From positions 5,669 to 69,668 of the forward strand of contig JBDRPX010000037.1 in the NCBI GenBank assembly GCA_043826565.1: a stretch of 64,000 nucleotides of DNA, written 5' to 3'. This document shows positions 8,757 through 55,950 of the stretch, in pieces. The position numbers and the translations under genes were made by a program. The notes under the pieces are model-generated. The model was not told the origin of the DNA. It saw only the letters and a program-made list of their open reading frames with translations, and searched no databases. The DNA comes from Candidatus Omnitrophota bacterium (lineage in GTDB: Bacteria; Omnitrophota; Gorgyraeia; B26-G9). Positions within the stretch are counted from its first letter, which is position 1, and the number at the start of each line of letters is the position of its first letter.

Positions 8757-8772
8757 TCCCAAAAGGCTCTAC

Positions 8773-11562
8773 ATGAAAATTCCAATATCCACCTATAGAT
8801 TACAGTTTAATCCGGCATTTACTTTTGCGGATGCTAAAAAAAACCTTTCTTATTTAAAATCATTAGGAATATCCGATATATATGCTTCTCCGATTTTCAA
8901 GTCCCGTAAAGGGAGCATGCATGGTTATGATATTGTTGATCCTAATCAGCTTAATCCGGAATTGGGATCTACTGAAGATTTCAATGCGCTGACTGAAGAT
9001 GTGAAAAACCGTCAGATGGGATGGGTGCAGGATATTGTGCCCAACCACATGGCATTTGACCGTGAGAATGAGATGCTTATGGATGTGTTGGAGATGGGAA
9101 AGCTTTCCCCATATTATAAATATTTTGATATTGACTGGAACCATCCGTATGAGAGTATGCGGGGAAGGCTGCTGGCCCCGTTTCTGGGAAAATTCTATGC
9201 AGAATGTTTAGAAGCTGGGGAAATTAAACTTCAATACAGTGAAAAAGGATTAAGCATAAACTACTACTCATTACAATTTCCCTTAAAAATAGAATCTTAC
9301 AAAATGGTTTGTCTGTTTAATATCGACGAACTTAAACTGACATTAGGGCAGAGCCATCCGCTTTTTTTAAAATACCTTAATATTTGTTCTGTTTTTGATG
9401 TTGATGATAATTTGCCGGAGATGGAAAAATATAATCAGCTTAGGCAGGGGAAAGATCTGTTGCGGGAGCTTTATGTTAATGATGAGCTGATTAAAAATTT
9501 TATAGATGGTAATATCAAAGCTTTTAACGGGACACCGGCAGATGTGGAGAGTTTTAATCTGCTGGAGGATATTCTTTCACGTCAGTTATTCCGCTTGTCA
9601 TTCTGGAAGGTGGCTACCGAGGAAATTAATTATCGAAGATTTTTTAATATTAACGAATTAATCTGTCTGAGAATAGAAGATGATGACGTATATCGTCGTA
9701 CGCATGTACTTCTTGGCCGTCTTTTTGACGAGGGAAAAATTAGCGGGATTCGCGTTGACCATATTGATGGTTTGTATGACCCCGGGACATATTTGGAAAA
9801 ACTAAAAAAACAGTTTCCGGACAGCTACCTGCTTGTCGAAAAGATTTTAATCTCGCAGGAAAAGCTTCCGGGATGCTGGCCGGTGCAGGGCACCACCGGA
9901 TATGATTTCTTAAATTATGTGAACGGTTTATTTTGCTTAAAGAGAAATCAGCGAAAAATTAACCGGATATACAGTAAATTTACGTCTAATAATATTGCTT
10001 ATGATGAACTCGCGGGAAATAAAAAGAGATTAATAATCGGTAAGCATATGGCCGGGAATATTGATAATCTTGCTCATTTCATGAAAAAGATATCCAGTTA
10101 TAGCCGTTATGGCAGTGATATTACGCTTTACGGGCTTAGGAGAGCTTTGGTGGAAGTGTTGACCAATTTTCCGGTTTATCGGACATATATTAGCCGGGAT
10201 AATTTTAAAGATACGGATGTGCAATATGTTTTAAGCGCGATAAAAAAAGCAAAGCAGTCAATCCCCGGTCTTGTATATGAACTTGATTTTATAGAAAAAT
10301 TTCTTTTGCTTAAACCTGAGCACTATATCCGGGAGCAGGAACGGGGAGAAGTTACTGATTTTGTTATGCAGTTTCAGCAGGTCAGCGGGCCGCTGATGGC
10401 TAAAGGTGTAGAAGATACCGTATGTTACGTTTATAACAGGCTTTTGTCTTTAAATGAAGTTGGCGCAAGCCCGGATAAGTTTGGGATTTTTTCTAGTGAT
10501 TTTCATTATTTTAGTAAAAGAAAGAAAAAAAAATGGCCGTATTCTTTAAACTCTTTATCAACGCATGATACCAAAAGAGGAGAGGATGTCCGGGCGAGAA
10601 TTAACGTGCTTTCGGAAATACCCGCGGTCTGGGAGCAGAATATAAAGCATTGGCATAGACTAAATAAAAAGTTTAAAACTTCGGTAAATGGAATGCTGGC
10701 TCCGGATAAAAATGATGAATACTTTTTATATCAGACCTTAATTGGGGCATTCCCGTTTTTTGAAAAGCAATACCCGAGATTTTTAGACCGGGTTAAAGAA
10801 TATATTATTAAAGCGGTCAGAGAGGCGAAAGTTCATACCGCGTGGTTAAAGCCGGATATTGACTATGAGAACGCTTATATTTCATTTGCCGAGGAATTGC
10901 TGAAATTTTCTCCGGCAAGTGTGTTTATGAATGAGTTCTTATCGTTTCAAAAAAAAGTTGCGCATTATGGGATTTTTAATTCTTTAGCCCAGGCCTTGAT
11001 TAAAATAACCGCTCCCGGAGTTCCGGATTTTTATCAGGGAACTGAACTATGGGATCTTACTTTGGTTGATCCGGATAACCGCCGTCCGGTTGATTTTGGG
11101 CTAAGACAAAAGTTTTTAGCGGATATTATTGAAAAAGCGGGTACGGATTTGCCGGGATTGATTTCTGAATTATGCAATACTCATGAAGATGGCCGGATAA
11201 AATTATTTTTAATATATATGGCTTTGCGGGCAAGAAAAGAAAACAGTATCCTTTTTCGCGAAGGCGCATATGTTCCCATAAATACCGGAGGTAAATACAA
11301 AGATCATATTATTGCGTTTGCCAGAAAATATGATAATATGATAGCCATAACTGTTATTCCGAGATTTCTCGCTTTGCTTATAAAGGAGAGTGAATATCCA
11401 TTTGGGGAATATGTTTGGCAGGATACGTATGTGGTGAGCCCTGAAGATGGTAAGTGTAAATGGAAGAATGCATTCACCGGTGAAGAAATAGAAGGAAAAA
11501 AGATTTTATCAGTGAGTGATATTTTTAAATCTTTTCCGGTTGCGTTATTAATTAGCGTTTAG
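8773..11562 (+). CDS. treY: malto-oligosyltrehalose synthase
   Basis: 929 aa; N-term IPISTYRLQFNPAFTFADA...LGISDIYASPIF is typical of TreY. Confidence 0.8.
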   Translation: MKIPISTYRLQFNPAFTFADAKKNLSYLKSLGISDIYASPIFKSRKGSMHGYDIVDPNQLNPELGSTEDFNALTEDVKNRQMGWVQDIVPNHMAFDRENEMLMDVLEMGKLSPYYKYFDIDWNHPYESMRGRLLAPFLGKFYAECLEAGEIKLQYSEKGLSINYYSLQFPLKIESYKMVCLFNIDELKLTLGQSHPLFLKYLNICSVFDVDDNLPEMEKYNQLRQGKDLLRELYVNDELIKNFIDGNIKAFNGTPADVESFNLLEDILSRQLFRLSFWKVATEEINYRRFFNINELICLRIEDDDVYRRTHVLLGRLFDEGKISGIRVDHIDGLYDPGTYLEKLKKQFPDSYLLVEKILISQEKLPGCWPVQGTTGYDFLNYVNGLFCLKRNQRKINRIYSKFTSNNIAYDELAGNKKRLIIGKHMAGNIDNLAHFMKKISSYSRYGSDITLYGLRRALVEVLTNFPVYRTYISRDNFKDTDVQYVLSAIKKAKQSIPGLVYELDFIEKFLLLKPEHYIREQERGEVTDFVMQFQQVSGPLMAKGVEDTVCYVYNRLLSLNEVGASPDKFGIFSSDFHYFSKRKKKKWPYSLNSLSTHDTKRGEDVRARINVLSEIPAVWEQNIKHWHRLNKKFKTSVNGMLAPDKNDEYFLYQTLIGAFPFFEKQYPRFLDRVKEYIIKAVREAKVHTAWLKPDIDYENAYISFAEELLKFSPASVFMNEFLSFQKKVAHYGIFNSLAQALIKITAPGVPDFYQGTELWDLTLVDPDNRRPVDFGLRQKFLADIIEKAGTDLPGLISELCNTHEDGRIKLFLIYMALRARKENSILFREGAYVPINTGGKYKDHIIAFARKYDNMIAITVIPRFLALLIKESEYPFGEYVWQDTYVVSPEDGKCKWKNAFTGEEIEGKKILSVSDIFKSFPVALLISV

Positions 11563-11627: not shown

Positions 11628-13124
11628 ATGGAAAAACGAGGCAGCGGCATATTATTGCATATTTCGTCATTACCTTCTGATTTTGGCATCGGAGATATGG
11701 GCGAAGCGGCCTACAAATTCGTTGATTTTTTAGCCCAGGCAAAACAAAAATACTGGCAGGTACTCCCCTTTAACCCGACAAGTTTGATCAACGGCAGCTC
11801 TCCCTACAGCAGTGTCTCGGCGTTTGCCACCAATACATTATTGATCAGCCCGGAATTGTTGTGTAAGGACGGATTTCTTACCTCGGGGGAAATAGATTCA
11901 TCCTCTCAGAACGGCAGCAGGGCGGTTGACTATGAAAATGTTTTGGAATTAAAAGCCAAATTATTTGCCATAGCTTTCGAACGGTTTGAAAAACTTAAAG
12001 ATAAAGCTGGTTTTAATAATTTTTGTTCTGAAAATAAATATTGGTTGGATGATTTTGCCGCGTTCATCGCTTTTAAAGAACATTTTCAGGACTGCATTTG
12101 GACTGACTGGCCGAAGGAGATCAGGGATCGGGATAAAAAATCCATGAATGAGCTTAAAGAGCAGCTGACCCGGCAGATTAAAAAAGAAAAGTTTCTTCAA
12201 TATTTGTTTTTAAAACAATGGATTGGTTTGAAGAATTATTGTAACCAAAAAGGCGTTCAAGTTATCGGAGATATCCCGATCTATGTCACCTATGATAGTG
12301 TTGACGTGTGGAAAAATCCGGAAATTTTTAAACTTGATGAAAATAAAAACCCGGTTTATGTTGCCGGTGTACCTCCGGATTATTTTAGCAAAACCGGTCA
12401 GTTGTGGGGTAATCCGGTATATGATTGGGATGTGCTTGCTGAAAATAATTATTCCTGGTGGATGCAGCGAATAAATCATAATTTAAAACTTTTTGATTTA
12501 ATAAGGATTGATCATTTCCGGGGATTTGTGGATTATTGGCAGGTGAAAAACGCAGAGAAAACAGCAATTAATGGAGAGTGGCAAAAAGCTCCGGCAAAAG
12601 AATTCTTTAAAGCTTTGCTAAAAGAATTTCCCGAACTGCCGTTAATTGCGGAAGATCTGGGGATTATTACTGATGAGGTAAGGGAAACAATGAAATACTT
12701 TGGGTTCCCGGGGATGAAGATAGTGATGTTTGCCTTCGGAGAGGATGATCCGGAGCATCCTTATTTGCCGCAGAATTTTGCGACTAATTGTGTTGCTTAT
12801 ACCGGAACGCATGATAATAATACCGCCCGGGGCTGGTTTGAGCAAGAAACAACCCCGGAAGACCGAAAAAGACTTTCTGATTGTTTAGGTAAGGAAACAA
12901 ATGCCGATAAATTGCACTGGGATCTTATTGAGTTGTTAATGAAGTCTGCAGCGCATACAGTTATTTTTCCTTTGCAGGATGTTTTTGGCCTTCCACAAGC
13001 GGATCGTATGAATATCCCGGGAACAGTGGGCAATAACTGGAAATGGCGTTTTAAACCGGAACAAATTACTCCTCAGGTAACAGTTCAGCTGGCAAAAATG
13101 ACCGAGCAATATTCTCGCACCTAA
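11628..13124 (+). CDS. malQ: 4-alpha-glucanotransferase (amylomaltase, GH77)
   Basis: GSGILLHISSLPSDFGIGDMG N-terminus and GH77 motifs. Confidence 0.85.
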   Translation: MEKRGSGILLHISSLPSDFGIGDMGEAAYKFVDFLAQAKQKYWQVLPFNPTSLINGSSPYSSVSAFATNTLLISPELLCKDGFLTSGEIDSSSQNGSRAVDYENVLELKAKLFAIAFERFEKLKDKAGFNNFCSENKYWLDDFAAFIAFKEHFQDCIWTDWPKEIRDRDKKSMNELKEQLTRQIKKEKFLQYLFLKQWIGLKNYCNQKGVQVIGDIPIYVTYDSVDVWKNPEIFKLDENKNPVYVAGVPPDYFSKTGQLWGNPVYDWDVLAENNYSWWMQRINHNLKLFDLIRIDHFRGFVDYWQVKNAEKTAINGEWQKAPAKEFFKALLKEFPELPLIAEDLGIITDEVRETMKYFGFPGMKIVMFAFGEDDPEHPYLPQNFATNCVAYTGTHDNNTARGWFEQETTPEDRKRLSDCLGKETNADKLHWDLIELLMKSAAHTVIFPLQDVFGLPQADRMNIPGTVGNNWKWRFKPEQITPQVTVQLAKMTEQYSRT

Positions 13125-13749: not shown

Positions 13750-16700
13750 ATGATGACCAGAAAAAGATTAAAGACTAGACGCTATACGCTGTGCGCTAAA
13801 CGCTTGGTTGTGTTTTTCCTGGTGCAGGCGATGGTTGCCGGCCCTTTGCCGGCGGCGCCGGCGGAGATGCTTACTCCCGCAATCCAAATTAACCATTCCG
13901 GACTGCAGCAGGCTTTTGTCGAAGCCGGCCAAGGAGAAAATTTTCTGCGGGAGTTTGTGGTCCGCAGAAAAGAGATATTATGTGAAGAATATTACGATAA
14001 GCAGAAACTATTACGTAAGGCGGCATATTCTACCGGAGAGATATTTGCGCAGTTTGATTATGACCAACACCGTCAGCTGCAGCATCCTGAAGCAATAGTT
14101 GATACTCTGGTTAACGCTGTTTTAACCAATACGGATATAGGAAAACAACAGGCCGCGGCGTATGTTTTAGAAACTATCAGAATCCCCAGGCGGGATCCCG
14201 GCATAGTTCGGACGGTCAGCAAAACAGATTTAAAAGTAATTGCCGAGAGCCTCGGTATTGCGCTGCACGGAGCTGATATTGATACGATAATTTTAAGTAA
14301 TGGGATCGTGCTTATGCCGGAGGGATATTCTCCCTCAAAAGTACGTGCTCGGGAACAGGTTAGCTTTTCTACTTTGTATTCCGGGGAACGGGCGTTTGGA
14401 GAATATCTTAGCCGGTTGGAAGCGCGGCGTGAGTCCGGGGAAAATAATTCGGCTTTGGATGAGGAGATTGTAACTCTTCGAAAGCTTAGGGATATGCGTA
14501 GATATATGCTTCGATTAACAGAAAAGGCGGATCAGGAGCGTGATTCGGTGATACCGATGCAGGAATATATTGCCGAGAAGGTAAAAACTGAATGGCTGGC
14601 TTGTGCCGGACAAGAAGGCCTTAGTAAAGACCAAGCTTTAAAATCAATCCAACAGGCGCGTATGCTGAACGTCGATTTAAAGTTAGCAGAGGATTTGCTA
14701 GATTTAGCCAAAAGGCATGAACAGGCTTTAGAAAACGAGTGGGTAATTGTTGGGCAGGAATTGCTTCAGGCACAGGAATTGTCCCGGCAAAACAGTAGTC
14801 AGGCAAACAGACAAATAGCTGATTATTGGCAGCGTTCTCACGCGTGTTTAGAACAACAGCTTGAGCAGGCCAAAGAGGAACGGAAAAAGGCTGAGCAGAA
14901 TTTTGAGGAAGAACGCACTTTACAGCTTAGGCAGGTTGAGGAGCACAGAAAAATCGTCAGAGATAATTCTCCGCACCAGATTTTGTTCGCCAAAAAAAGG
15001 AATATTAACACGATTACTTATCGCTTATTAACAATAGCCTTATGTTGTGCCGGGATAGAAGAGTTTAATGAATTAGACATAGACCTGGGCGCGGCCATTA
15101 TTATCGAGCGCGGAGAAAACGGGCCGTTTACAACCAGAGATGATTTTGTGCGGCGGATGTGCGAACGTTTAGGCGCGGATAAGAAATCGTTGATGAAAAA
15201 TATCTGCAAAAATTTCAGTAAGCTTACTATCCGCTTTTCCGCTGAACCTGTCGGAGAGCTGGAACTGGGGGTTGCCAGATATTATATGGACACGATGGAC
15301 GAATTACAGCGGGCGAAAGAACGATTTTCTTACCTGCGGCAGAGGCTGCATCAGGCCCAAGAAGAGCTGAGAGTTGCTTTATATCAGGAGTTAAAAATAA
15401 ACAATTCGTTTGCTGCGGCTGTGAGCGGTTATCCTGAATTGCAGCTGGATATTGAACGGACAGTTTCTTATTGTGAACGCAGTAGAGTTTCCTTCTCTGA
15501 TTATCATTCGCCAAAGTCTGAGTTTATTTCGGTTTTGCATGCTTTACAAAAAATATTTTCAAAAAGAGAGAACGCGGTTAGTTCCCGGATTGATTTCTAT
15601 ACCAATATTATATTTCAATTAATAGGCAGGCTTAGTTACTGGGAGGAAAAAGAAGATAAAGGGCTGAAGTTTTCTTCGAAAGAGATCCATGAATTTGAGC
15701 AGATAAAAATAATGTTGAGACTGCGCAAAATTGCGGAAAGCGGGCGCTATGTTTCGGACATCCATTGTTTTCAGCGTTTGCGGGATGAAGTAAGCAGGAT
15801 TAACTATACGGATGTATTACCGGGTTATCTGTCTACGGTAGCGATGAATGAGACATTATATGCCCGGGTGAATTCTCCGTGGAACATATTGATGAAAAAT
15901 CACCGGCGGGAGGCTCTGACGATGATTCCGGGAGCGGATGATGCGGTTCTTTTAGGAGTGCCGGCAAGGCATATCCTCTCCGAAGAACAGTCGCATCGAA
16001 TATTGGAGATCCCCATAGGATGGGAAATAGAGTTTACTTCGTCACAGCGGTATTTGCCTCCGGTGCCGCGGGAAAAATGGATAGATGCCATTATTCCCAA
16101 CGCCATAGAATTGCACGATAAAGGAGTTATTCTGGCGGATTTGCACAGGTTAAAAGAATATAATCTGCAGCCGACCTGGAGTTGGCGGACACAGCTATTG
16201 ATGCTGCGCAGAGTTATGTCCTTGGCGGGATTTAGCGGGACGCAGGCGGATTCTTTGCAGATTAATGTAGGGATTAAAGAAAAGGATTGGCAGATATTAA
16301 CTCCGGTGATGCGGGAAGACCTGGAAACCGATGCGCACTGGCTAATGTTTAATATTGTAGCAGCTTATGTCTCACCGGGAAGGATTGAACGCAAAAAAGT
16401 GGATAAAGTAGTCCAGGCAAAAGATGTTCAGGTTGTAGATATCGACGGAGAAAAATACCGCCGTTTCGAATATGCGTTTTGTGATTTTGAGAATATCGAA
16501 ATGATCGCGCCGCTGGTGCAGTATGGCCATACTTGTTTATTTTATTATTACTATGTGAGAAACGAATATGAACTGGGAAATTATAATGTTCCCGAATTAT
16601 ATAAGAAATTAGCCGCATTGGGAGAAAAATTAAGAAAGGCGGCTGACCGGGAGGATCTGGTAGGATTATTTGGTATCCAGCTGGATAAAGCTGGTACATA

Positions 16701-16905
16701 CCGGGAAAGCAGTTTGTTGACTCACCGGGAAAGAGGATCTAAACAGATTTTACAAATTAAAGGTATGTTGGATAATTTTCTGCGGGAATTTTGTGATCTT
16801 GCCGGATTACCCCGGGAAGTTGTATTGCCTGCAGAAGAACAAAAGCTTGTGCAGAAATTGAGTGATGAGGGATTTGAGATATTAATTATTGAACAGGCGA
16901 TATAG
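13750..16905 (+). CDS. large secreted protein, member A of EQAI-terminus paralog family (coiled-coil/Q-E-R-rich central region)
   Basis: signal-peptide-like N-term (LVVFFLVQAMVAGPLPAAPA), post-signal motif MLTPAIQINHSGLQQAF, C-terminal ...LIIEQAI-stop. Confidence 0.7.
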   Translation: MMTRKRLKTRRYTLCAKRLVVFFLVQAMVAGPLPAAPAEMLTPAIQINHSGLQQAFVEAGQGENFLREFVVRRKEILCEEYYDKQKLLRKAAYSTGEIFAQFDYDQHRQLQHPEAIVDTLVNAVLTNTDIGKQQAAAYVLETIRIPRRDPGIVRTVSKTDLKVIAESLGIALHGADIDTIILSNGIVLMPEGYSPSKVRAREQVSFSTLYSGERAFGEYLSRLEARRESGENNSALDEEIVTLRKLRDMRRYMLRLTEKADQERDSVIPMQEYIAEKVKTEWLACAGQEGLSKDQALKSIQQARMLNVDLKLAEDLLDLAKRHEQALENEWVIVGQELLQAQELSRQNSSQANRQIADYWQRSHACLEQQLEQAKEERKKAEQNFEEERTLQLRQVEEHRKIVRDNSPHQILFAKKRNINTITYRLLTIALCCAGIEEFNELDIDLGAAIIIERGENGPFTTRDDFVRRMCERLGADKKSLMKNICKNFSKLTIRFSAEPVGELELGVARYYMDTMDELQRAKERFSYLRQRLHQAQEELRVALYQELKINNSFAAAVSGYPELQLDIERTVSYCERSRVSFSDYHSPKSEFISVLHALQKIFSKRENAVSSRIDFYTNIIFQLIGRLSYWEEKEDKGLKFSSKEIHEFEQIKIMLRLRKIAESGRYVSDIHCFQRLRDEVSRINYTDVLPGYLSTVAMNETLYARVNSPWNILMKNHRREALTMIPGADDAVLLGVPARHILSEEQSHRILEIPIGWEIEFTSSQRYLPPVPREKWIDAIIPNAIELHDKGVILADLHRLKEYNLQPTWSWRTQLLMLRRVMSLAGFSGTQADSLQINVGIKEKDWQILTPVMREDLETDAHWLMFNIVAAYVSPGRIERKKVDKVVQAKDVQVVDIDGEKYRRFEYAFCDFENIEMIAPLVQYGHTCLFYYYYVRNEYELGNYNVPELYKKLAALGEKLRKAADREDLVGLFGIQLDKAGTYRESSLLTHRERGSKQILQIKGMLDNFLREFCDLAGLPREVVLPAEEQKLVQKLSDEGFEILIIEQAI

Positions 16906-16998
16906 AGTGGATTGCAAATTGCAAATAACAAATTGCAGATTAAACTAATGAAAATAAAAAAACAAATAAACTACATAATAATATTTTTGCTGGTGCAG
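16891..16998 (+). repeat. 108-nt junction repeat copy 1 (3' end of upstream gene + spacer + 5' signal-peptide coding of next gene)
   Basis: gaacaggcgatatagagtggattgcaaattgcaaataacaaattgcagattaaactaatgaaaataaaaaaacaaataaac...ctggtgcag, near-identical to 19720-19827. Confidence 0.9.
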
Positions 16999-19734
16999 AT
17001 GATAGCAATGAACAATGTTGTTTTTGCTCTTTCTCCTCAAATTAATATTAAAGGGGCAGCCTTGCAGAAAATTTTTGAGAGTAATAAAAAACCGCAAACC
17101 AGCCAGTTAATGGAACATGATTCCGGGAGGGGATACAGAGTATTTGATTTGCCGGAAGGATATCGTGATATTACTGTTGTTTTGATCCATCGCGGGGCCG
17201 GTTTTGGGAACCGGGGTGCGGTTAATAACCTATTAGTTAGTTTACAGCATCAATTCCGCGGTAAAAATATTAGTTTGCGATTAGCTTATAGTTTGGGGCG
17301 GCCGGGAGAAGAATCTGATCAGGAACTGCGTATGCAACAGGAGCTGATTGCTCAAAGAAATAGTAAGGCAGAAGCTGAAGGCCTGCCGAAAATTGAATTG
17401 GAAACATATTATACATTTACCATGGATGGAACACCGGTCATATCGGGGCTTCGAAAAACTGATGTGGCGATTTATTTTGGGTATGATTCTGCGGAAATGT
17501 TGGATGTGGCGCAGGATGAAGCTGATTTTTTAAGAAGAGAACAGATGGATGCAAAACTGGCATTTCATATTCCGATTTATGCTACCGGATACAGGCTTCG
17601 CGATGTTGATTATGCCCGCATTCTCAGAGGGGGAACAATACACAGAGTTATTCCGACAGCTAATTTTTTAAAAGGAACAGGCCGGATTGTTATTAACCCG
17701 GAACTTGTTGCGAAAAGTATCAAAATTGACGGATTAAATAAACAAGATGTTTTGCAGGAAAGAAGAAAGTTATTAGATAAACTGGGAGTAACGGAGATAC
17801 CTGATGGAGCTGAAGAAACAACTTGGGCATTTGCTTATACCCATAATTACGGAAAACTGGAAGAGTTTTTAAGAAATTGTGGAAAAAGCAAACAAAAGAT
17901 AACTCTTTTTCTTGCTCCAGGATATCTTATTAACCGGACGGTTAAATATTATTATAAAGATAATATCCGGCAGTTATTGGAATATTTTAAGGCTATCCCG
18001 GACAATGTTAATATTGTATTCTTAGAAGAAAATTTAGAGCGTAAAGACGCATATAACCAGATCATGCTTTTATCAGGAGTGTTGACGGAATATGGTTTAA
18101 AAGGGGGGTTTCCCAATCTGATTACCGGCGATCAATCGACCAGTGAAGTACTTTCGGCGCGCAGATTATTTGTGCATGACGGGATGAATGCGCAGGATGG
18201 AGATGAATTATGGCAGGGGTTATTTGCCGGGCCGCTGCAGAGATTTACCGTGCAATACAATGACTTGGAAGATATAGATAATAATTGGCCTAATCTGTTT
18301 ACTGCTAATCCCCAGGGAATGCCGGGAGAGTTTTCTGTCTTTAAGGCCATGGAAATGCAGATGGAATTTATTGCGGCCATAGACAGTATTCTAGAGCGGC
18401 GCAATATTGTTGATCATATTGGAAAGACGATTGTTGCCGAGGCAAGCCGTCAGGCTGCGGATGAGAACCTGGAAGCGATGTTAGATACTGCAGTGGTATT
18501 AAGAGAACAGTTAAATGGTTCGGTTTTTGAAAAAGTTTCCGCAGATATTTTTCAGGATGTTTATGTCTGTGTAAATCCCCGGACAAACCAATTTGTTACT
18601 TTATATGTTCCGACCAACATTGCTCAGCAATGGGAAACTAGTAATGGTGAAAAAGGTAAGCGTTTTGGCGGCCAGTATTCAGGAATGGTTGAACTGCACA
18701 ACCTGACGGGTATCGTCGGTGGAGAGCAACAGAAGCTTACTTTGGCTTTTGCCCATCCGGAAAATGGATTAGAACAAAATAATGATTTATCTATTCCCGG
18801 CAAAAAAGATCCGATGCTTGCTTTGACTGATGAGACATTTGGTTCCGGAGAAATAGCTAACTATGTGCAGAGGGTGCGGAATTTAATTATGGGAGAAAGC
18901 ATTGAGATTGTTAATATCCATTCTGAGCAGGAATTTAATGATTATCTGGGGATAGCGCCGGAGGAACATTCTGCGATTTTGTATTCAGAACATCCGGAGA
19001 CAACCTTAAGAGTTATGTGTAAAAACTTTAATGAAGATAAACCGCTGGCTAATATTAGAAAAGAACATACTTTTGCCGCGCGTATTCAGGCTAATGGCCG
19101 GGAATATATTTGGTTTGCCCAATTCTCCATCGGAGATGATAAGCAGATAAGATATAATGAAGCATATTTAATGAAGGTATTAGAGGAAACTGAGCATAAG
19201 TACCTGGAAGTCGGCCATGGATATTATGATGTGCCTAAAAATCCTGTTCCCGGTCATTGCTGTATTGATCTTATGTATGGAATTGATAACCGCTTTCGAT
19301 TTCAGGAAGCGCATATTAAGCATGCCCGGGCATTATTTGAACTGCGGTTAAAAGCGCTGGATAAGCTCTATAAACCTGCTGCATTTGTTATTCCTTCCGG
19401 ACAAATAATTTCAGATATTGCATTGTATTTTTACGGCCGGTTTGGATTTTTGCCCTTGGACTACGGAGCCAGAGCAGATGTGACTTCTAAATATTTAATT
19501 CCTTACCGGATTAAATCTCCGGGAAAAATGATCGGGGAGGGGATGGAAGTTTTTGGTAAATATCTGATTATCGGAGCGTTTGGAGATTTTGCTCTGGTGT
19601 TGAGACCGCAAGGGATCAAAGGGAGTAAAAGACATTTTGATATGCCGGAGATGTTAAAAAATAGAGGTATTCCCATATCAATGCAGCAACCGCCGGCACG
19701 AAGACATCTGGAGCTTATTGAACAGGCGATATAG
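16948..19734 (+). CDS. large secreted protein, member B of EQAI-terminus paralog family
   Basis: [17 protein letters not shown] signal peptide; ALSPQINIKGAALQKIF motif; C-term LELIEQAI-stop; C-terminal ~150-aa domain (EYIWFAQ...GHGYYD...FGFLPL) is shared with member E. Confidence 0.75.
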   Translation: MKIKKQINYIIIFLLVQMIAMNNVVFALSPQINIKGAALQKIFESNKKPQTSQLMEHDSGRGYRVFDLPEGYRDITVVLIHRGAGFGNRGAVNNLLVSLQHQFRGKNISLRLAYSLGRPGEESDQELRMQQELIAQRNSKAEAEGLPKIELETYYTFTMDGTPVISGLRKTDVAIYFGYDSAEMLDVAQDEADFLRREQMDAKLAFHIPIYATGYRLRDVDYARILRGGTIHRVIPTANFLKGTGRIVINPELVAKSIKIDGLNKQDVLQERRKLLDKLGVTEIPDGAEETTWAFAYTHNYGKLEEFLRNCGKSKQKITLFLAPGYLINRTVKYYYKDNIRQLLEYFKAIPDNVNIVFLEENLERKDAYNQIMLLSGVLTEYGLKGGFPNLITGDQSTSEVLSARRLFVHDGMNAQDGDELWQGLFAGPLQRFTVQYNDLEDIDNNWPNLFTANPQGMPGEFSVFKAMEMQMEFIAAIDSILERRNIVDHIGKTIVAEASRQAADENLEAMLDTAVVLREQLNGSVFEKVSADIFQDVYVCVNPRTNQFVTLYVPTNIAQQWETSNGEKGKRFGGQYSGMVELHNLTGIVGGEQQKLTLAFAHPENGLEQNNDLSIPGKKDPMLALTDETFGSGEIANYVQRVRNLIMGESIEIVNIHSEQEFNDYLGIAPEEHSAILYSEHPETTLRVMCKNFNEDKPLANIRKEHTFAARIQANGREYIWFAQFSIGDDKQIRYNEAYLMKVLEETEHKYLEVGHGYYDVPKNPVPGHCCIDLMYGIDNRFRFQEAHIKHARALFELRLKALDKLYKPAAFVIPSGQIISDIALYFYGRFGFLPLDYGARADVTSKYLIPYRIKSPGKMIGEGMEVFGKYLIIGAFGDFALVLRPQGIKGSKRHFDMPEMLKNRGIPISMQQPPARRHLELIEQAI

Positions 19735-19827
19735 AGTGGATTGCAAATTGCAAATAACAAATTGCAGATTAAACTAATGAAAATAAAAAAACAAATAAAC
19801 CACATAATAATATTTTTACTGGTGCAG
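19720..19827 (+). repeat. 108-nt junction repeat copy 2
   Basis: about 2 mismatches versus 16891-16998. Confidence 0.9.
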
Positions 19828-21069
19828 GTATTGTTTTTAATTCCGCATGCTTTAGCTTTAGATGAATATACATTGTCCCCCCAGCTGGTGGTAGGCGGAG
19901 GTTTTTTTGGTGAAGCTTATCTGCGGTTATTAGCGCAGGACGAAGCGCGTTTAAGCCGGCAGGAACAGGAAATTTTCACGCAGCTTTTTGATGCGCTTGA
20001 AATAGACCTGAACAGTTTGGCTTGGGACACACAAGGGAATGATTATGATTTATCCGAAGTGCCGGTTGCTGATATTAATGAAGATACTTTGCGGGAAATG
20101 TTTTGTTTGCCTTTTAGTTATAAAATCGGTGGTACTTTAGGGATTATTCGTTATCAAAATTTTCCGATATTAATTTATCTTTGTGATCAAGTAAGGAACG
20201 TAACTTTTATTGACCTGACAAAATATTATCGTTCATCATTTGCCGCTAATTTAGGCTGGGGAATTAAACAGGATATATGTATAATCTTTAAAAGGAAGAA
20301 TTTTTTTAAAGTAAGTCAAATTGAAATAACTCATCCGTATGTTACCGTAGCTATCAACGGCAGCGGTGATCTTGCTCATATTACCGAATATGATTTTAGT
20401 GATGAAGAGGCGGATGTCTTCCCCAGAAGAAAGATAGAATTACCTTTATTGCCCGGGGTCTGGATGCCCAAAAGTACGTCAAGTTATTTAATTGCCGAGG
20501 CAACTGCAGAATTTGTGCGTCCGGGGATGAGAGTGCTGGTTATTGGAACCGGAGCTGGCCTGGAAGCGCGGATTGCCGCGGAAAAAGGAGCCTTGGTCGA
20601 TGCGGTTGATATTAAGAAGCTGGCAGTTAGAAATACAAAACTGACATGTTCAGAAGAAGAGTATGCGGTGCGGGTTAATGCTTTTGTTAATAATATGTTT
20701 CATGGCTTGGGAAAATATGATTTGATTATCTGGAATATGCCGCATTTTGTCGGGACGGAAGAGCCAAAAGAGGATTTTCCCGATTATTCCAATAGTTCTG
20801 ATTTTACGGGGAAAATATTGCGGGAATTTGCGCAAAACGTATGTTCGCATTTGAAAAAAAATGGAAAAGCTGTTGTGATTAACAAAAGCGATGAACAGGT
20901 GAAACAGATCCTGGAATATTTTTCGGGTAAACATGTTGAGGATTATGGGGTCTCTAAAAAACGATACTCTCAAGGGTATATTATAGATAATCAACGGGTA
21001 AAAAGATGGAAGAAGATGAGGCCTTTCCCGGAAGGGATAATAAGTGTTTATATGGAGCAGGCGGTATAA
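19777..21069 (+). CDS. secreted protein, member C of EQAI-terminus family, with class I SAM-methyltransferase-like Rossmann domain
   Basis: [17 protein letters not shown]; TLSPQLVVGG motif; VLVIGTGAGLEARIAAEKGALVDAVDI (motif I) and IIWNMPHF (NPPY-like motif IV); C-term VYMEQAV-stop. Confidence 0.7.
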   Translation: MKIKKQINHIIIFLLVQVLFLIPHALALDEYTLSPQLVVGGGFFGEAYLRLLAQDEARLSRQEQEIFTQLFDALEIDLNSLAWDTQGNDYDLSEVPVADINEDTLREMFCLPFSYKIGGTLGIIRYQNFPILIYLCDQVRNVTFIDLTKYYRSSFAANLGWGIKQDICIIFKRKNFFKVSQIEITHPYVTVAINGSGDLAHITEYDFSDEEADVFPRRKIELPLLPGVWMPKSTSSYLIAEATAEFVRPGMRVLVIGTGAGLEARIAAEKGALVDAVDIKKLAVRNTKLTCSEEEYAVRVNAFVNNMFHGLGKYDLIIWNMPHFVGTEEPKEDFPDYSNSSDFTGKILREFAQNVCSHLKKNGKAVVINKSDEQVKQILEYFSGKHVEDYGVSKKRYSQGYIIDNQRVKRWKKMRPFPEGIISVYMEQAV

Positions 21070-21073
21070 GTAA

Positions 21074-21105
21074 AGAGTAGTGAGTAGCAAGTAGAGAGTA
21101 GAGAG
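21074..21105 (+). repeat. tandem heptamer array (AGAGTAG TGAGTAG CAAGTAG AGAGTAG) directly after stop codon
   Basis: 7-nt period places TAG in all three frames. Confidence 0.7.
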
Positions 21106-21123
21106 AAAGATAAAAAGTAAATA

Positions 21124-23568
21124 ATGAAAATAAAAAAACAAATAAACCACATAATAATATTTTTGCTGGCGCAAACATTTTTGTTCGGACAGTGTGTTTG
21201 GGCCGGACAGACGGATACTCTTGCGCCGCAATTAAAGGTGTATACACCTGTTTTGCATAAAGATTTTCTCCAACAGATGTCTATTTCTGTTGTCCCGATG
21301 CTTGCTGAACATCTTGATAAATTAGATATCAAGGAGCAATACATAGACGGGAAAGAGGATACTTTAACATTAATTCGCCAGGCGCATGACGGGCTTATAA
21401 GAGCAGGATATCCGATTTCTTCCCGGATAGTCAAAACATATACTCCGGAATACTTGCATATTGACGGTTGCTCAGCTTTTTCAACGGGAAGAATTCAAAT
21501 GGTTTGTTTTCGGGTAAACGGAAATTTTGATCAAAAAAGCATTGCTATCCCGCGGCCTCATGATGAAGCATATTGTTTTTCTTTAATAAGCGGAGGAAAA
21601 GTTGTCGGCCATGGAGTTCTAGCCTATGATTACCATCATCCGGATACGGTATTTTTTAGATATGCTATACACGGCAGCCATTTTATTGTAGATGGATATG
21701 ATTTTACAAATCAGGGGTTTGGAACAGACAGCCTCACATTACTGGCGGCAATCATAAAAACCGGGAAGCTTTTTCCTGCGAATATGCGGAAAATGGAGTA
21801 TTTAGCCAGTAATGATGACCTTTTAAAATGGGGCAATTTTTCTCCCATTTATAACCGGATGAAGAAGTTTTTGCTGAAATCCGGATTTGTTGATGCCTCA
21901 GAAGAGAGAATTGCGCCGTTTTTTGATATTACTAAACAAAACATCGGATTTAAGTTAGGAAATAATGATGAAGGCAGTGTTGCCGGACAAAGAGTTTATT
22001 TGTCAGCTAGTGTTGCCGGCTGTATTGGTAAGCCGGCAAAATATATTCATGATGCTTTGCTGAAAGTACCTCCGGAACTTATTGCGGAAGCATATTACCG
22101 GCGTTTTAACTTATTATCAAATCCATATGGCAAGGAATTTCAAGGTTTGTGGGGCCGGGATGAAACCAAAGCTATAGAATTCCTTGCGAGAGGATATAAA
22201 ACATTGCATGATCTTAATAGTCAGGGCCATGTCCGGGTAGATTTTATTCCGCATGATATGAAAGGAGATGTTCCGGAAGGATTAGAAGGCATGGTTTTGT
22301 TCAGTAATTCCAAGAAAGCTTATCAGACTGAATTTGTAGAATGGGCATGGGTTCCGGAAGTAGAAGCATGGCTGCCGGTAGCAGATGAAAGCGCTAAGAC
22401 TTCGCAACGGCCGGCATTTATACGTGTTGTGCTTACCGCGGATAAAAAGAAAGTAGTAAGAGTAGCGAAGAGCCTTACAAAAGATAAGTTACAGGAACTT
22501 ATCTTAGAGCATGGAGATTGTATTGTCTGCGGCAGAGTTCCGCCAAGTGCTCACTTGTCACTTGTGCGTGACAGTTCTCTGGGCATACGTGAAAGCGGAA
22601 ACTATACTATTGATGGAAAAGGAAATAATTTGTATATAGCATCTCTTAGCCGGGAAGGGGTGCCGACCGGTTTTCAGTTTTTTGGGAACGGAGAAAAGGT
22701 TCCACTGCGGGTAGCTGTAAAAAGAAATCGTGAAGGGAAAGTGATGGAGAGGATCGAATCCCAGAGATATTTTGCCGGAGAAACATTGGCGCAGATATAT
22801 GCGAAAAAAGGGCAGTATTGGGTGATGCCGGTCTATGTGCAAACCCCTGTTCATTCAGCCCGGCATACAAAGATCCAGGCTGGCTCACGTTTTGTTGTGA
22901 CCGGAGAAAAAGGAAAAAAAATCAAGAGCGAAGTAACAGAAGAAGTGGAATATAATTATTATCTGGATGCGGCATATTCCGGAGCAGAGGCGCAGCTTTT
23001 GATCGGCCGCTCCGGGGTGCCGGTTTATTTATATGTTTCCGGTGATGTCCGGAAGGGGGTGCCGGCATTAGAGTGCTTGTTAAAATTGATAGAGGTGAGG
23101 AATAGCCGGGATGAAGTTATTGATGTTATAAACTCATCTAATGCCGAGATATCCCGGCAAATTCTGCAAATAGCAGTAAAAAATGCCCGGGTTAAAGATG
23201 GACGCGTAGTAGTAACACGAATACCGGTAGAATCCTCTTTTTTAAAACGAAGCACTTTAGCTGTACGCTGCGGCGGAGAGGAAATATGTGTTAATCAAAA
23301 ATTGCCGGATTTCCCCGGTCAAAAATATGCGGAGCTGGTTTATGGAAAAAATAAATTTGATGCGCCGGTTCCGATTAGTATCAGAATAGGATTTTATGAG
23401 GGTGATGATCCGCTTAATTTTAACAAAATAAAATTTCATGTGTTAAAGGAATTTTTCATTGAACGTGCGCAAAATAATAAGTTCTATGAGACCAGAGAAA
23501 CAAAGACTTTGGTGGAAACTGAAAAAATGCCGCTGGAAAATTTAACTATTCTGGAACAGGCGATATGA
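21124..23568 (+). CDS. large secreted protein, member D of EQAI-terminus family
   Basis: [17 protein letters not shown]; TLAPQLKVYTPVLHKDF; C-term LTILEQAI-stop. Confidence 0.75.
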   Translation: MKIKKQINHIIIFLLAQTFLFGQCVWAGQTDTLAPQLKVYTPVLHKDFLQQMSISVVPMLAEHLDKLDIKEQYIDGKEDTLTLIRQAHDGLIRAGYPISSRIVKTYTPEYLHIDGCSAFSTGRIQMVCFRVNGNFDQKSIAIPRPHDEAYCFSLISGGKVVGHGVLAYDYHHPDTVFFRYAIHGSHFIVDGYDFTNQGFGTDSLTLLAAIIKTGKLFPANMRKMEYLASNDDLLKWGNFSPIYNRMKKFLLKSGFVDASEERIAPFFDITKQNIGFKLGNNDEGSVAGQRVYLSASVAGCIGKPAKYIHDALLKVPPELIAEAYYRRFNLLSNPYGKEFQGLWGRDETKAIEFLARGYKTLHDLNSQGHVRVDFIPHDMKGDVPEGLEGMVLFSNSKKAYQTEFVEWAWVPEVEAWLPVADESAKTSQRPAFIRVVLTADKKKVVRVAKSLTKDKLQELILEHGDCIVCGRVPPSAHLSLVRDSSLGIRESGNYTIDGKGNNLYIASLSREGVPTGFQFFGNGEKVPLRVAVKRNREGKVMERIESQRYFAGETLAQIYAKKGQYWVMPVYVQTPVHSARHTKIQAGSRFVVTGEKGKKIKSEVTEEVEYNYYLDAAYSGAEAQLLIGRSGVPVYLYVSGDVRKGVPALECLLKLIEVRNSRDEVIDVINSSNAEISRQILQIAVKNARVKDGRVVVTRIPVESSFLKRSTLAVRCGGEEICVNQKLPDFPGQKYAELVYGKNKFDAPVPISIRIGFYEGDDPLNFNKIKFHVLKEFFIERAQNNKFYETRETKTLVETEKMPLENLTILEQAI

Positions 23569-23573
23569 TCAAA

Positions 23574-23591
23574 GAGTAGCGAGTAGAGAGA
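23574..23591 (+). repeat. GAGTAG heptamer repeat (AGAGTAG CGAGTAG AGAG) after stop codon
   Basis: same motif as 21074-21105 and 30676-30710. Confidence 0.6.
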
Positions 23592-23607
23592 ATATATAAC
23601 GTAAGAT

Positions 23608-25593
23608 ATGAAAATAAAAAAACAAATAAACCACATAATAATATTTTTACTGGTACAGGCGATGAGTGCTGGTTCCCTGGCTATTGCTGTTCCGGAAGAC
23701 CGGACTTTATCTGCGAAAATTATCATTAATCAGCAATCCTTGCAGGAAGTATTTGCCCGTCTATCTCAACAGGATGATGAGGTGTTACAATGGGGTAGTT
23801 CCCGTATTCCTAACTCTCTGCCTCAAGAAAGTATCCCCGCGGAAATGTGGCGGGATACTTTTAGCAGAAATCCGGTTTCTCGATATATTCAAAATATTAG
23901 AGATAATATTACCGGAGCAGATGTTGATATTACTGTTTTAGATTCCACGGCGCAGTTATTAGAGTATCTGGGATTGACAGAACCGAGAGATATTGTTTGT
24001 TCCGGATATCTTAGTGAGCTGCAGCTTATGTGTCAATCAGCGGAAAAGCCGGAGTTTGTCAAAATGGTGACGCAATTAAAACAGCTTATGCCATCACAAA
24101 TGCCTGTGGGTAATATGCTGGCAGCACGTATTTATAAGAATGGGTATGAATATATCTGGATAACCCAGGTGCTTCCCGATCAGTCTATCCCGCCGGATGA
24201 TTTTATTTTTAATGAAACATATTTAGTAGCTGAAACTCAAAAGGGAAGAAAGAAATATGTTGAAATAGGTCATGGTTATTATGGAGTCAGCGGAGTTCAA
24301 GGCGGAAGAATCGGCTTATCTTTTGGGATTGATGAGGATTATCAATCCCGGCATAGAAACGGCGGGAAATTCAGCCATGCGCATAATATATTTGAATTCA
24401 GGCTGCAGGCATTAGAGACACTCTTTAGGCCGAGTATTCTTATTGTGCCTCAGGCGCAGGCAACAAGTGCACCTGATTTTTCCCGGAAAACAGTTTTATT
24501 TTACGCCGGATTCGGGTTTCTGCCTTTAAAAGATTTTAGAAGGGAACAGCTGGTTAACGGATATCTTTTGCCGGTGAAAATAAACCGGACTTTGGCAAAG
24601 ATAAAAAATCCCGCGGCGGTTTTTGACGATAAGTTTATGTATAAAGCCGGCGACTTCATGCTGATTTTAAGAGATAAAAGAACGGAAATAAAAGATGTTT
24701 GCAGACGATACCGGATCTTTGATGAAGCCGAAGTCCGGCAATATGAAGCGCTGAATGCGCGTTACGGTCAAAACCCCTCAGCTTTAGATGACTCAGAAGC
24801 ATACGATCTGTTTGGGTATTTGAGTATTACAGGAAGGCTTAACCAGGGAAATAATTATGCCGTGCTTATTCAGAGAATCGGATGGCTGAAGGCTCAGGCC
24901 CAAAAAGGAGGAGAATTTAAACAGCAAATCGGCGGTAAATACATTGGCCATATTGTCGGGATGAACGATGTCTTGAATCCGGCAGCGCCGTATTTAGATA
25001 TTAAGCCCCAGGATACTGTGCTTGATATCGGTTTTGCCGTCGGCGGAGAAACGATTGGTTTAGCAGCAGCTCATCCGGAGGCTGATTTTGTTATGGCTAA
25101 CCCGGAACTGAGATTTGTACAGCATGCTGTTCGTCAGGCGGAATCTTACCGGCCTTTGTTAAATAATTTGCGGATTGCTCCAAAAGTTTTTGAGGAACTT
25201 GCTTTACCGGCACATTCGGTTAATCATATTATTATTCGTAACATTTTCTTTGACTTAGATGAGGTGAAGATAAAAGATATGCTGATAGAATTAATGCGCA
25301 TTGCCGCCCCGGATGCTACGATTGTAATTACCGGATATCGGCATTTAGAGAAAAATACACAGGAAAATGCTCGAGCTGGTATAAAACCTGAGTATAATCT
25401 GGAGTTATTGACAGAAGTATGTGCAGAGATGGGGATTAGTTATACGGTTGATCATCCCACATCTTTTCCTAATCGTGATGCGCGGATCAGGCTAATTCCG
25501 GCGAGTCGACGAAATACATTATTCGAAGAGACCCAAGCTGTGAGTTTAAAAAAGAAAGCAGAGCCAGCTGTTTTTGTCGAACAGGCAATATAA
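23608..25593 (+). CDS. secreted protein, member E of EQAI-terminus family; N-terminal half shares domain with B, C-terminal half SAM-MTase-like
   Basis: [27 protein letters not shown]; [18 protein letters not shown]; YEYIWITQ...GHGYYGV...FGFLPL; [14 protein letters not shown] (motif I); C-term VFVEQAI-stop. Confidence 0.75.
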
Positions 25594-48604: not shown

Positions 48605-50067
48605 TCGTTCTATTATTTATAGCGGCGATAAATACGGTAAAGGTATACGGGGAGGATTTGAAAAAACCGCTATTGGATCTGCCGCATGTGGTTGGGGATG
48701 ATCTCCTGCCGGATGCGTTTATGCCTGAAGAAAGCCGGGAGAAAACCGGAATTGAAGATAGTTCCGGGTTTTTCAGCTTTGCTTATGGCAGGTTTCATTC
48801 CAGTACTTATGATATTAAACAATCAGCCCGGGGAGACAATTTTTATTATACCGCGCGAATCAATATTGATGATTCCGGCGGAGAACGTGATAACAGTAAA
48901 TTCACAACGTACCGGCCGAGTTTTGAGTTAGGTATCCCTTTTGACCGGGAAAATGAGGCTGTTTTCAAGGTTAATTATTTCAATAAGATTATGAATCTTC
49001 CCGGGAAAATGGATGCGCTTACTCCCGGGGCAAAAAGGAAGAACACGGATTTTGAGATATCTGCGCAGTTTATTCGCGGATTGGATAATGGGCAGGTGAA
49101 AATAGAGCCTTATTATGGCCGCTCAATATTGGATGAAGATATTAATCGCCGGGATTTCCGAAATAAACTTTTGGGAACAAGGATAAATTTTGAAGCTGAT
49201 GAAAATGAAGTAAAAATAGACGCGTTTGATAATAAACTGGTGGACCGGTATGAGCATTTAATTACGGATGCTAAGATAAGATTAAAACCCATTCCGCTTG
49301 ATGAGCAATGGCAGTTTAGGCTGGGGGCTAATATTTTTGCTCAGGAAGGTTTTGGGCAAAGGCCCTCTCCTTATGTAGAGTTAATGTTTAGTTCACAAGA
49401 GGACAGTTCTCATAAATTAAAAGCCACGCGTGAATTTGCTCCGCTTGTGTTTCGGGAAATCTACCTTAATGATAATTTCGTGGAAGCAACCCCTCTGGAA
49501 TTACGCCCGCGAAGAAAGTCGATTATTTCCTATGAATTCGACAAATATGTCAGCCGGGAGTGGAGGACAAACTTAGTTATCTATGTACAGCAGGACAAAG
49601 ATCTGTGGTTTTGGAATGATCCGGATAATAATGGCTTATACTCTCCGGAGATCATTGAAAAGGTAAATTTCGGCGGGATAAAGATATCTACTGAGTATAC
49701 CTGGAGTGAAGCCTTCAGCCATTTTATTAGTTTGAATTTACGCAGTATAACCAGTAAAGATCCTGATTATGAGTTTGTGCCGTTTGAGCCTAAGCAAAGA
49801 ATAGCTGTCGGGCTTACTTATAAGATTGACGAAAGATTTAAGATGGATATTACCGGCGATTACTTCGGCCGGCGCTTTTTTCAGGGTAATTCCAAGGAGA
49901 GTTTTAGCGCGTATTTTCTCTTGGCAAGCAAGCTGACCTATCAACTGAAAGATTACTTGACTTTATTTGTGTTAGTTGATAATTTATTAAATGACCATTA
50001 TGAAATAGTAAAAGGTTATCCCAGCCAGAGTAGGAGTGCCTTGGCCGGAGCATCGGTTAAATTCTAA
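48571..50067 (+). CDS. putative outer-membrane beta-barrel protein
   Basis: signal peptide; alternating amphipathic strands; C-terminal ...GASVKF ends in an aromatic residue as in OMPs. Confidence 0.45.
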   Translation: MFKRKIICYTVIVLLFIAAINTVKVYGEDLKKPLLDLPHVVGDDLLPDAFMPEESREKTGIEDSSGFFSFAYGRFHSSTYDIKQSARGDNFYYTARINIDDSGGERDNSKFTTYRPSFELGIPFDRENEAVFKVNYFNKIMNLPGKMDALTPGAKRKNTDFEISAQFIRGLDNGQVKIEPYYGRSILDEDINRRDFRNKLLGTRINFEADENEVKIDAFDNKLVDRYEHLITDAKIRLKPIPLDEQWQFRLGANIFAQEGFGQRPSPYVELMFSSQEDSSHKLKATREFAPLVFREIYLNDNFVEATPLELRPRRKSIISYEFDKYVSREWRTNLVIYVQQDKDLWFWNDPDNNGLYSPEIIEKVNFGGIKISTEYTWSEAFSHFISLNLRSITSKDPDYEFVPFEPKQRIAVGLTYKIDERFKMDITGDYFGRRFFQGNSKESFSAYFLLASKLTYQLKDYLTLFVLVDNLLNDHYEIVKGYPSQSRSALAGASVKF

Positions 50068-54483: not shown

Positions 54484-54492
54484 GGGGTAGCT

Positions 54493-55947: not shown

Positions 55948-55950
55948 ATT

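Follow-up and report, generated by a model that had tools for sequence, protein, structure and literature searches.

What might enzymes of a normally cytoplasmic kind be doing behind signal-peptide-like leaders? The question is raised by a stretch of 64,000 nucleotides (nt) from a Candidatus Omnitrophota bacterium (assembly GCA_043826565.1, contig JBDRPX010000037.1, positions 5,669 to 69,668; hereafter the window), in which five genes, here called A to E and all on the plus strand, form a tandem paralogue array between malQ and hflX. An earlier note, made from the sequence alone, had described C and E as secreted proteins with domains resembling S-adenosylmethionine (SAM)-dependent methyltransferases, and had recognized a further domain that B and E share in different positions. 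The reading put forward here, tentatively, is that the array encodes an exported, modular enzyme family, the members of which are possibly effectors that act in another cell.

The five proteins are defined by their ends. Each starts with a basic n-region, one strongly hydrophobic stretch (..IIIFLLVQ..) and a small-x-Ala site, after which follows (T)LSPQ[IL]x[IV]....L...F, and each closes with hydrophobic-x-EQA[IV] directly before the stop codon, an ending found in only these five open reading frames (ORFs) of the window. Kyte-Doolittle profiles show a single N-terminal peak in each protein and no second hydrophobic segment. Leader and tail were aligned across nine proteins from five or more genomes, and the traits of a signal peptide (n-region, h-region and small residues at positions -3 and -1) were found in all nine; this reading is based on sequence inspection and the Kyte-Doolittle profile. 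The ends are also conserved in the DNA. The A/B and B/C junctions, each running from the 3' end of one gene across the spacer into the leader of the next, are 98% identical over 113 nt, and the first 41 nt of the coding regions of B to E (from 16948, 19777, 21124 and 23608) are almost identical; outside the leaders, the cargo of different members is too diverged for similarity to be recognized. The identity of the junctions suggests gene conversion or a recent duplication of cassettes. The codons for LSPQ vary among members, and copies of the tail differ at synonymous positions and in the stop codon, which indicates that the amino-acid motifs are selected as protein features. An independent assembly of the same organism (L022, Logan SRR26275510 contig, 17,108 nt) breaks inside or just after gene A, as would be expected if short-read assembly were confused by the repeated junctions.

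Lys and Arg residues precede the hydrophobic core of the leaders and acidic residues follow it. These features fit signal peptides of the Sec/signal peptidase I type, with a charge distribution that would favour placement of the cargo outside, and export of A to E is accordingly considered probable. Two other signal types were rejected. A twin-arginine translocation (Tat) signal is not indicated, as B to E have KK, RR occurs only in A (TRRYTL) and in P0002 (SRRLKF), a homologue of C described below, and the h-regions are strongly hydrophobic; nor is a lipoprotein signal, given that the members have no Cys in common where the h-region ends. The twin Arg residues in the leaders of A (13750-13860) and P0002 (L001, 10001-10060) give these two a loose likeness to Tat signals that is probably not significant. 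At the other end of the proteins, the known C-terminal sorting signals sought (the C-terminal domain of the type IX secretion system, LPXTG, PEP-CTERM, GlyGly-CTERM and the autotransporter barrel) gave no Pfam or NCBIfam match at E <= 1. As is established for type IX substrates and autotransporters, A to E combine a signal peptide at the N-terminus, here a putative one of the Sec type, with a conserved element at the C-terminus and a variable passenger. In contrast to known C-terminal sorting domains, which are folds of 70-300 amino acids (aa) or tags with a transmembrane helix (LPXTG, PEP-CTERM and GlyGly-CTERM), their conserved tail amounts to only about 6-8 residues, with no helix and no C-terminal hydrophobic window. 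A leader-plus-tail profile searched against 5.8e9 proteins yielded 222 candidates, none at E <= 10, and missed the window's own proteins too; it is suspected that HMMER penalizes so short and hydrophobic a profile, which would explain the empty search. Word-index searches with C and with E each returned only the query itself and one homologue or paralogue.

Gene C encodes, in order, the leader, a 170-aa domain of unassigned function, a methyltransferase domain and the tail, and the presence of the methyltransferase domain is practically certain. Its length had been given as 442 aa by counting from an upstream in-frame TTG; from the NCBI ATG it is 430 aa, and the ATG starts used here for B and C agree with the NCBI protein lengths. 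The Pfam family MTS (PF05175) matches residues 250-382 at 30.5 bits (gathering score 23) and P0002 at 35.6 bits. C also matches NCBIfam models of the archaeal HemK2/MTQ2 type (8e-17 to 3e-14), under all equivalog cutoffs (61.3 vs 162, 61.1 vs 243 and 53.2 vs 87 bits), and scores 15.1 bits with a PrmC-related NCBIfam model that has a cutoff of 248.8 bits. A phmmer search of PDB sequences retrieved Thermotoga HemK (1nv8, 1sg9 and 1vq1), in an alignment that pairs PGVWMP with EGVFVP, IGTGAG with IGTGSG, AVD with ATD and N-M-P-H with N-P-P-Y. The motif I, acidic residue and NPPY-like motif that the earlier note had picked out in C are therefore correctly placed, inside the MTS match and aligned to HemK. 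The PADLOC methyltransferase model mad2 matches the domain at 1.9e-14 (residues 239-398 vs 283-431 of 492), which places it in the broad amino-methyltransferase group (protein Gln-N5, or nucleic-acid N6A/N2G/N4C). Like HemK2/MTQ2-PrmC and MTS enzymes, C has the class I signature, motif X (PGVWxP), an IGTGAG motif I, Asp at the end of beta2 and an N-x-P-aromatic/His motif IV at the NPPY position. Unlike them, it scores far under the equivalog cutoffs, has NMPH instead of NPPY, and carries the domain behind a signal-peptide-like leader and an uncharacterized domain.

The sole outside homologue of C among 5.8e9 proteins is P0002, a protein of 653 aa from a metagenome-assembled genome (MAG) named 'PVC group bacterium', which is 36% identical overall. 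From motif X to motif IV (C residues 226-325) the two are 72% identical, compared to 22% in the N-terminal domain of C and 25-29% in its remainder; the HflX proteins of the same two genomes are 70% identical. Motif I and the acidic Asp are invariant in P0002, and NMPHF appears as NMPHY. The core of C is about as conserved as HflX, so that its cofactor-binding and catalytic half is under the constraint of a housekeeping protein. This is the best argument at hand for catalysis by C, which would probably be a working SAM-dependent N-methyltransferase.

The methyltransferase-like domain of E lies between the shared module and the tail, and is more divergent than the domain of C. Alone, E remains below the cutoffs of Pfam Methyltransf_25 (22.3 bits, cutoff 27) and Methyltransf_4 (18.2 bits, cutoff 24), reaches E = 0.006 with the TrmB model TIGR00091 (15.9 bits vs a cutoff of 112.65) and has no match among PDB sequences. 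An exhaustive HMMER search with E across 1.84e9 representative proteins found five: E, B, P0005, P0006 and P0007. P0007 is a leaderless protein of 274 aa that adjoins aspS and has Pfam Methyltransf_31/12/25 matches on record; phmmer aligned it to residues 363-570 of E at 2.7e-4 against the 1.84e9 proteins. A profile of E residues 363-661 plus P0007 matches 47 PDB methyltransferase sequences, best of all phosphoethanolamine N-methyltransferase (5wp5; 2.3e-6), and through these matches homology of E to class I methyltransferases is established. It is thus highly likely that E holds a methyltransferase-homologous domain, and the assignment of both C and E to the class I SAM methyltransferases has held, strongly for C and at the level of profiles for E. 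E resembles TrmB-like and generic class I enzymes (Methyltransf_4/25) in that, with P0007, it aligns to solved enzymes, and weakly to the TrmB models. It differs from them in staying under the Pfam and NCBIfam cutoffs, in having GFAVG for GxGxG and Asn at the acidic position, and in its fusion to an orphan module and a leader/tail frame. Compared with hhalign, the profiles of the E and C domains gave a match of 24 columns around motif I at a probability of 11%; so weak a match indicates that the two domains are not recent duplicates of one another.

The module shared by B and E is, as far as sequence comparison reaches, a true orphan. B and E align over 300 columns (BLASTP E = 6e-33, 32% identity). 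The module had been placed correctly at the C-terminus of B and the N-terminus of E, and its length is about 290 aa rather than the about 150 aa first proposed. A core of about 190 aa recurs in P0006 (residues 305-465 of a leader-bearing protein of 1428 aa) and in P0005 (218 aa). These four are the only carriers among 1.84 billion representative proteins, and each has a different architecture. Invariant positions include Y.W, GID, F...L..L..P, Q, FY...GF.P and DF..L; GHGYY is not among them, as P0006 lacks it. The module has no Pfam match and a PDB profile search found no relative, while whole B gave no significant match in a PDB sequence search and hhalign detected no relation between the module and D. 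AlphaFold, given the four-sequence alignment, returned a low-confidence model (mean predicted local distance difference test score, pLDDT, 45.8), for which Foldseek found nothing in PDB at E <= 1e-3. From the FY..GF motif and a predicted strand-strand-strand-helix order, a GNAT-like fold is suspected. The contig of P0005 (L002, JGI Ga0216261_1042843, 1852 nt) repeats one N-terminal coding sequence on its two strands (587-1243 on the plus strand, 1048-1662 on the minus strand) and is probably a hairpin or inverted-duplication assembly artefact, which makes the stand-alone status of P0005 uncertain. For A and D, no cargo domain was recognizable in Pfam or NCBIfam, and PDB sequence searches were not significant. 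The modularity of cargo domains proposed in the earlier note is supported, both by the four architectures and by a single leader/tail frame that surrounds unrelated cargo in at least eight proteins.

The frame and its cargo can be followed into related genomes, from which the slot between malQ and hflX was fetched using HflX as an anchor. In L001/L004 the slot is filled by one gene, that of P0002 (leader TLSPQIFL, tail LVGEAI), which is the only gene at the syntenic position (malQ, P0002, hflX, hrcA, grpE, dnaK, dnaJ). A further Omnitrophota MAG (L006; JAHIOQ010000085.1, 131-7219) encodes a protein of 2362 aa directly upstream of hflX (leader FLSPAINM, tail HLVEQAI). L017 has one family gene of 1182 aa (ATLSPQLRM, tail GYVEQAI); its slot also contains an unrelated, membrane-like ORF of 473 aa (8546-9967). 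In L005, L009, L015, L018 and L019, malQ and hflX are not separated by a family gene. L018 has the closest HflX relative (71% identity), yet its slot is empty. Among related Omnitrophota the slot therefore holds 0, 1 or 5 family genes. P0006 has the leader (ALAPQLV) at another locus, with a different tail. The distribution of filled and empty slots indicates a lineage-restricted family that is prone to gain and loss and is defined by its ends, not its cargo. The 2362-aa protein contains a class IV adenylate cyclase (CyaB) domain, which scores 86.8 bits against an NCBIfam equivalog cutoff of 57.95, together with a PRK/uridine-kinase-like domain and a DHH/family II pyrophosphatase-like domain. 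Wherever cargo of the family is recognizable, it is of an enzyme type dependent on cytoplasmic cofactors. In placing an adenylate cyclase after a signal-peptide-like leader, the 2362-aa protein recalls cyclase toxins. The positions of the array, its flanks and the elements discussed are collected in Table 1.

Table 1. Features of the A to E array and its flanks, in window coordinates.
Feature	Position	Strand	Remarks
malQ (GH77)	11628-13124		Upstream flank of the array
Gene A	13750-16905	+	1051 aa; RR-containing n-region, LTPAIQI motif, tail IIEQAI
A/B junction cassette	16886-16998	+	End of A (..ATTGAACAGGCGATATAG), 42-nt spacer, B leader
C-terminal EQAI of A	16891-16902	+	
Gene B	16948-19734	+	928 aa (NCBI call, P0004); leader MKIKKQINY..., LSPQI motif, tail LIEQAI
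Shared module in B	18790-19605	+	Residues 615-886 of 928, C-terminal; YIWFAQ, GHGYY, FGFLPL
B/C junction cassette	19715-19827	+	Second copy of the 113-nt repeat
C-terminal EQAI of B	19720-19731	+	
Gene C	19777-21069	+	430 aa; NCBI 'methyltransferase', P0001; tail YMEQAV
Leader of C	19777-19920	+	Signal-peptide-like, putative ALA cleavage site, then TLSPQLVV....F..AY
Class I SAM-methyltransferase domain of C	20431-20970	+	Residues 219-398; MTS / HemK2-MTQ2-like amino-methyltransferase type
Motif I of C, VLVIGTGAG	20533-20559	+	Residues 253-261
VDAVDI of C	20596-20613	+	Residues 274-279; holds the beta2 acidic Asp
Motif IV of C, NMPHF	20734-20748	+	Residues 320-324
C-terminal EQAV of C	21055-21066	+	
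Gene D	21124-23568	+	814 aa; leader, TLAPQL motif, tail ILEQAI
C-terminal EQAI of D	23554-23565	+	
Gene E	23608-25593	+	661 aa; NCBI 'class I SAM-dependent methyltransferase', P0003; tail FVEQAI
Shared module in E	23815-24672	+	Residues 70-355 of 661, N-terminal
Divergent class I methyltransferase-like region of E	24694-25557	+	Residues 363-650; homologous to P0007
Variant motif I of E	25018-25047	+	Residues 471-480
FVMANPE of E	25087-25107	+	Asn at the acidic position
C-terminal EQAI of E	25579-25590	+	
hflX-hrcA-grpE-dnaK	from 25640		Downstream flank of the array

In the proposed explanation, each product would consist of a Sec-type signal peptide with an FLLVQ-containing core and small-x-Ala cleavage, an LSPQ motif at the start of the mature protein or close to it, 350-1000 aa of variable cargo and a C-terminal hydrophobic-x-EQA[IV]-COOH. 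Recombination would swap cargo between frames, with the near-identical junctions of about 110 nt as homology arms. Once a protein had passed the Sec system, its leader motif and tail would act in sorting or delivery. The exported enzymes would then act inside the prey or host cell of a possibly predatory or host-dependent phylum. Action inside another cell is suggested by the cytoplasm-type cargo, since SAM and ATP (adenosine triphosphate) are not available outside the cytoplasm; as an argument from analogy, it makes the effector role conceivable and still somewhat doubtful. A more specific version is unlikely as things stand: LSPQ[IL]...L...F at the mature N-terminus and the C-terminal EQAI would form a new two-part sorting signal for an Omnitrophota-specific delivery of cytoplasm-type enzymes (amino-methyltransferase, class IV adenylate cyclase, nucleoside kinase and phosphoesterase) into prey or hosts, and the malQ-hflX slot would be a hot spot of effector cassettes shuffled via the junctions.

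Several points weigh against this explanation. The effector role is argued from cofactor logic and analogy only, and a partial survey of the 64-kb window found no secretion-system genes. The family is tiny and seen in MAGs only. Motif IV of C is unusual, with the Asn and second Pro kept, the first Pro changed to Met and the aromatic Tyr to His. In E, the motif I position reads GFAVGG, compared to GCGEGN in P0007 and GCGIGG in solved enzymes, and the Asn of FVMANPE aligns with a Glu of P0007 and an Asp of 5wp5, a Glu being found two positions downstream. The acidic residue at the end of beta2 that the earlier note had seen in both proteins is thus present in C (Asp) and absent at the homologous position of E. 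Together, the non-canonical motif I and the Asn make SAM binding by E doubtful. Some active methyltransferases tolerate such motif changes, which lower the likelihood of activity without excluding it, and E may be active or a pseudoenzyme. The AlphaFold models of full-length E, predicted from the single sequence, and of the shared module were of low confidence (pLDDT 36.6 and 45.8). Lastly, the hydrophobic segment of the leaders could be an uncleaved anchor.

From this last point arises the main rival, in which A to E are membrane-tethered enzymes of the producer itself, held by an uncleaved N-terminal anchor with their domains at the cytoplasmic face, where SAM and ATP are available. It would account for cargo made up of cofactor-dependent, normally cytoplasmic enzyme types, and for the existence of leaderless homologues of both E domains (P0005 and P0007). 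Such a topology would have company in the phylum, as 46% of Omnitrophota long proteins are reported as predicted to be transmembrane-only with cytoplasmic domains. It is nonetheless an improbable arrangement for A to E. With Lys/Arg before the core and acidic residues after it, most of the protein lies outside by the positive-inside rule, a small-x-Ala site typical of signal peptidase I closes each of the nine leaders, and the conserved LSPQ motif and EQAI tail are left without a role.

Export could also be accepted and catalysis rejected. On this second alternative, the proteins would be surface or envelope proteins, the folds of which are non-catalytic and serve binding or structure, for example in adhesion; they would vary because they are surface-exposed, as in the leader-sharing families of Mycoplasma or Borrelia. 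Leaders conserved at the DNA level are indeed a trait of such families, divergence outside the conserved ends is very fast, and both the non-canonical SAM motifs of E and the lack of a recognizable catalytic domain in A, B and D favour this alternative. In C, by contrast, motifs I, post-I and IV are intact and the catalytic half shows 72% conservation, and the CyaB domain of the 2362-aa relative exceeds its equivalog cutoff. Such conservation of cofactor motifs is unexpected for a purely structural role. These observations argue against pseudoenzymes for C and the CyaB domain, not for E, and as an account of the family this alternative seems unlikely. A third, that the locus is a restriction-modification or methylation-associated defence system (e.g. 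MADS) with the neighbouring genes as partners, is effectively refuted, as the mad2 match of C in its favour covers the generic methyltransferase domain only, A, B, D and E match no PADLOC defence model, defence methyltransferases are not known to carry leaders resembling signal peptides, and P0002, the single syntenic homologue, has no companion gene between malQ and hflX.

The spacers between genes A to E measure only 40-55 nt, which suggests that the genes are co-transcribed. In a scan of 13-27 kb, promoter-like sites occurred at chance level and terminator-like sites numbered 21, compared to 12.7 ± 3.8 in shuffles; inside the array there were only a few weak ones on the plus strand. Across the whole window (1-64000), nearly all ORFs of at least 150 aa lie on the plus strand, GC skew is positive in all 2-kb bins and the cumulative skew rises monotonically; the uniform strand and skew indicate that the whole window lies on one strongly strand-biased replichore arm. 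The region 53476-58122 encodes an ordinary leaderless class I methyltransferase (Methyltransf_31, 1e-14), unrelated to the A to E family, which adjoins a flavin amine oxidase and a 7TM-sensor histidine kinase. Pfam gave no match for two large ORFs of the window, 40539-42947 (802 aa) and 48571-50067 (498 aa).

Proteins of comparable make-up have been described in the phylum. Two preprints report giant and long Omnitrophota proteins in which methyltransferase, GNAT, NUDIX and kinase modules accompany a signal peptide or transmembrane helices, as well as type II secretion-like loci beside giant genes, and propose a predatory or host-dependent lifestyle (West-Roberts et al. 2023 preprint; 2026 complete-genome preprint). 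A methyltransferase fold behind a signal peptide, which had been called unusual, is so only in a relative sense, as these preprints present such combinations as common in Omnitrophota long proteins. The 'Archaeovorin'-type giant and long proteins treated there share with A to E the phylum, a signal peptide or transmembrane segment with mixed enzyme modules, and a proposed role in predation or secretion. They are described as many-module proteins of 7,000 to >100,000 aa, whereas A to E have 430-1050 aa and one or two modules, and form a tandem array. Term searches within the same two preprints did not bring up the LSPQ leader motif or the EQAI tail.

Likenesses also extend to systems outside the phylum. 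Secreted methyltransferase effectors have been reported from Mycobacterium tuberculosis (Rv1988), Legionella (RomA) and Anaplasma (OMT) (PMC5349108, PMC13534545, PMC4636158). In likeness to the role proposed for A to E, these depend on SAM, exit the producing cell and methylate their targets in a setting that supplies SAM. They differ in being SET-domain proteins or O-methyltransferases that take other secretion routes into eukaryotic hosts and are backed by experimental evidence, while A to E are known from sequence alone. Polymorphic toxins and leader-sharing families, as is well established, resemble A to E in having constant trafficking ends, swapped cargo, tandem arrays, constancy at the DNA level and fast cargo divergence. 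A to E are unlike polymorphic toxins in that they have no immunity genes and no trafficking domains of the Rhs, CDI or LXG type, and that both termini are constant, not the N-terminus only.

The methyltransferase calls are already known, as the NCBI pipeline names C and E as such. The two-ended LSPQ/EQAI frame, its swapped cytoplasm-type cargo, the orphan module of B and E, and the variable malQ-hflX slot appear to be undescribed, in that term searches of the two Omnitrophota preprints yielded none of them; no Pfam or NCBIfam model covers the leader/tail frame or the orphan module. Omnitrophota are widespread, uncultured and very small bacteria that are suspected of being predatory or host-dependent, and ideas on how they act on other cells are, to our knowledge, limited to speculation about their giant proteins. 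Were the proteins of the array tethered housekeeping enzymes or surface pseudoenzymes, they would constitute an ordinary lineage-specific paralogue family, to which the methyltransferase annotation adds little. The family is small and tractable, with proteins of 430-1050 aa, a recognizable export-type frame and single enzyme modules. With a well-conserved amino-methyltransferase among its members and an adenylate cyclase in a relative, it would, if A to E are exported enzymes, offer candidates for secreted effectors, and for a possible new sorting signal, that lend themselves to experiment.

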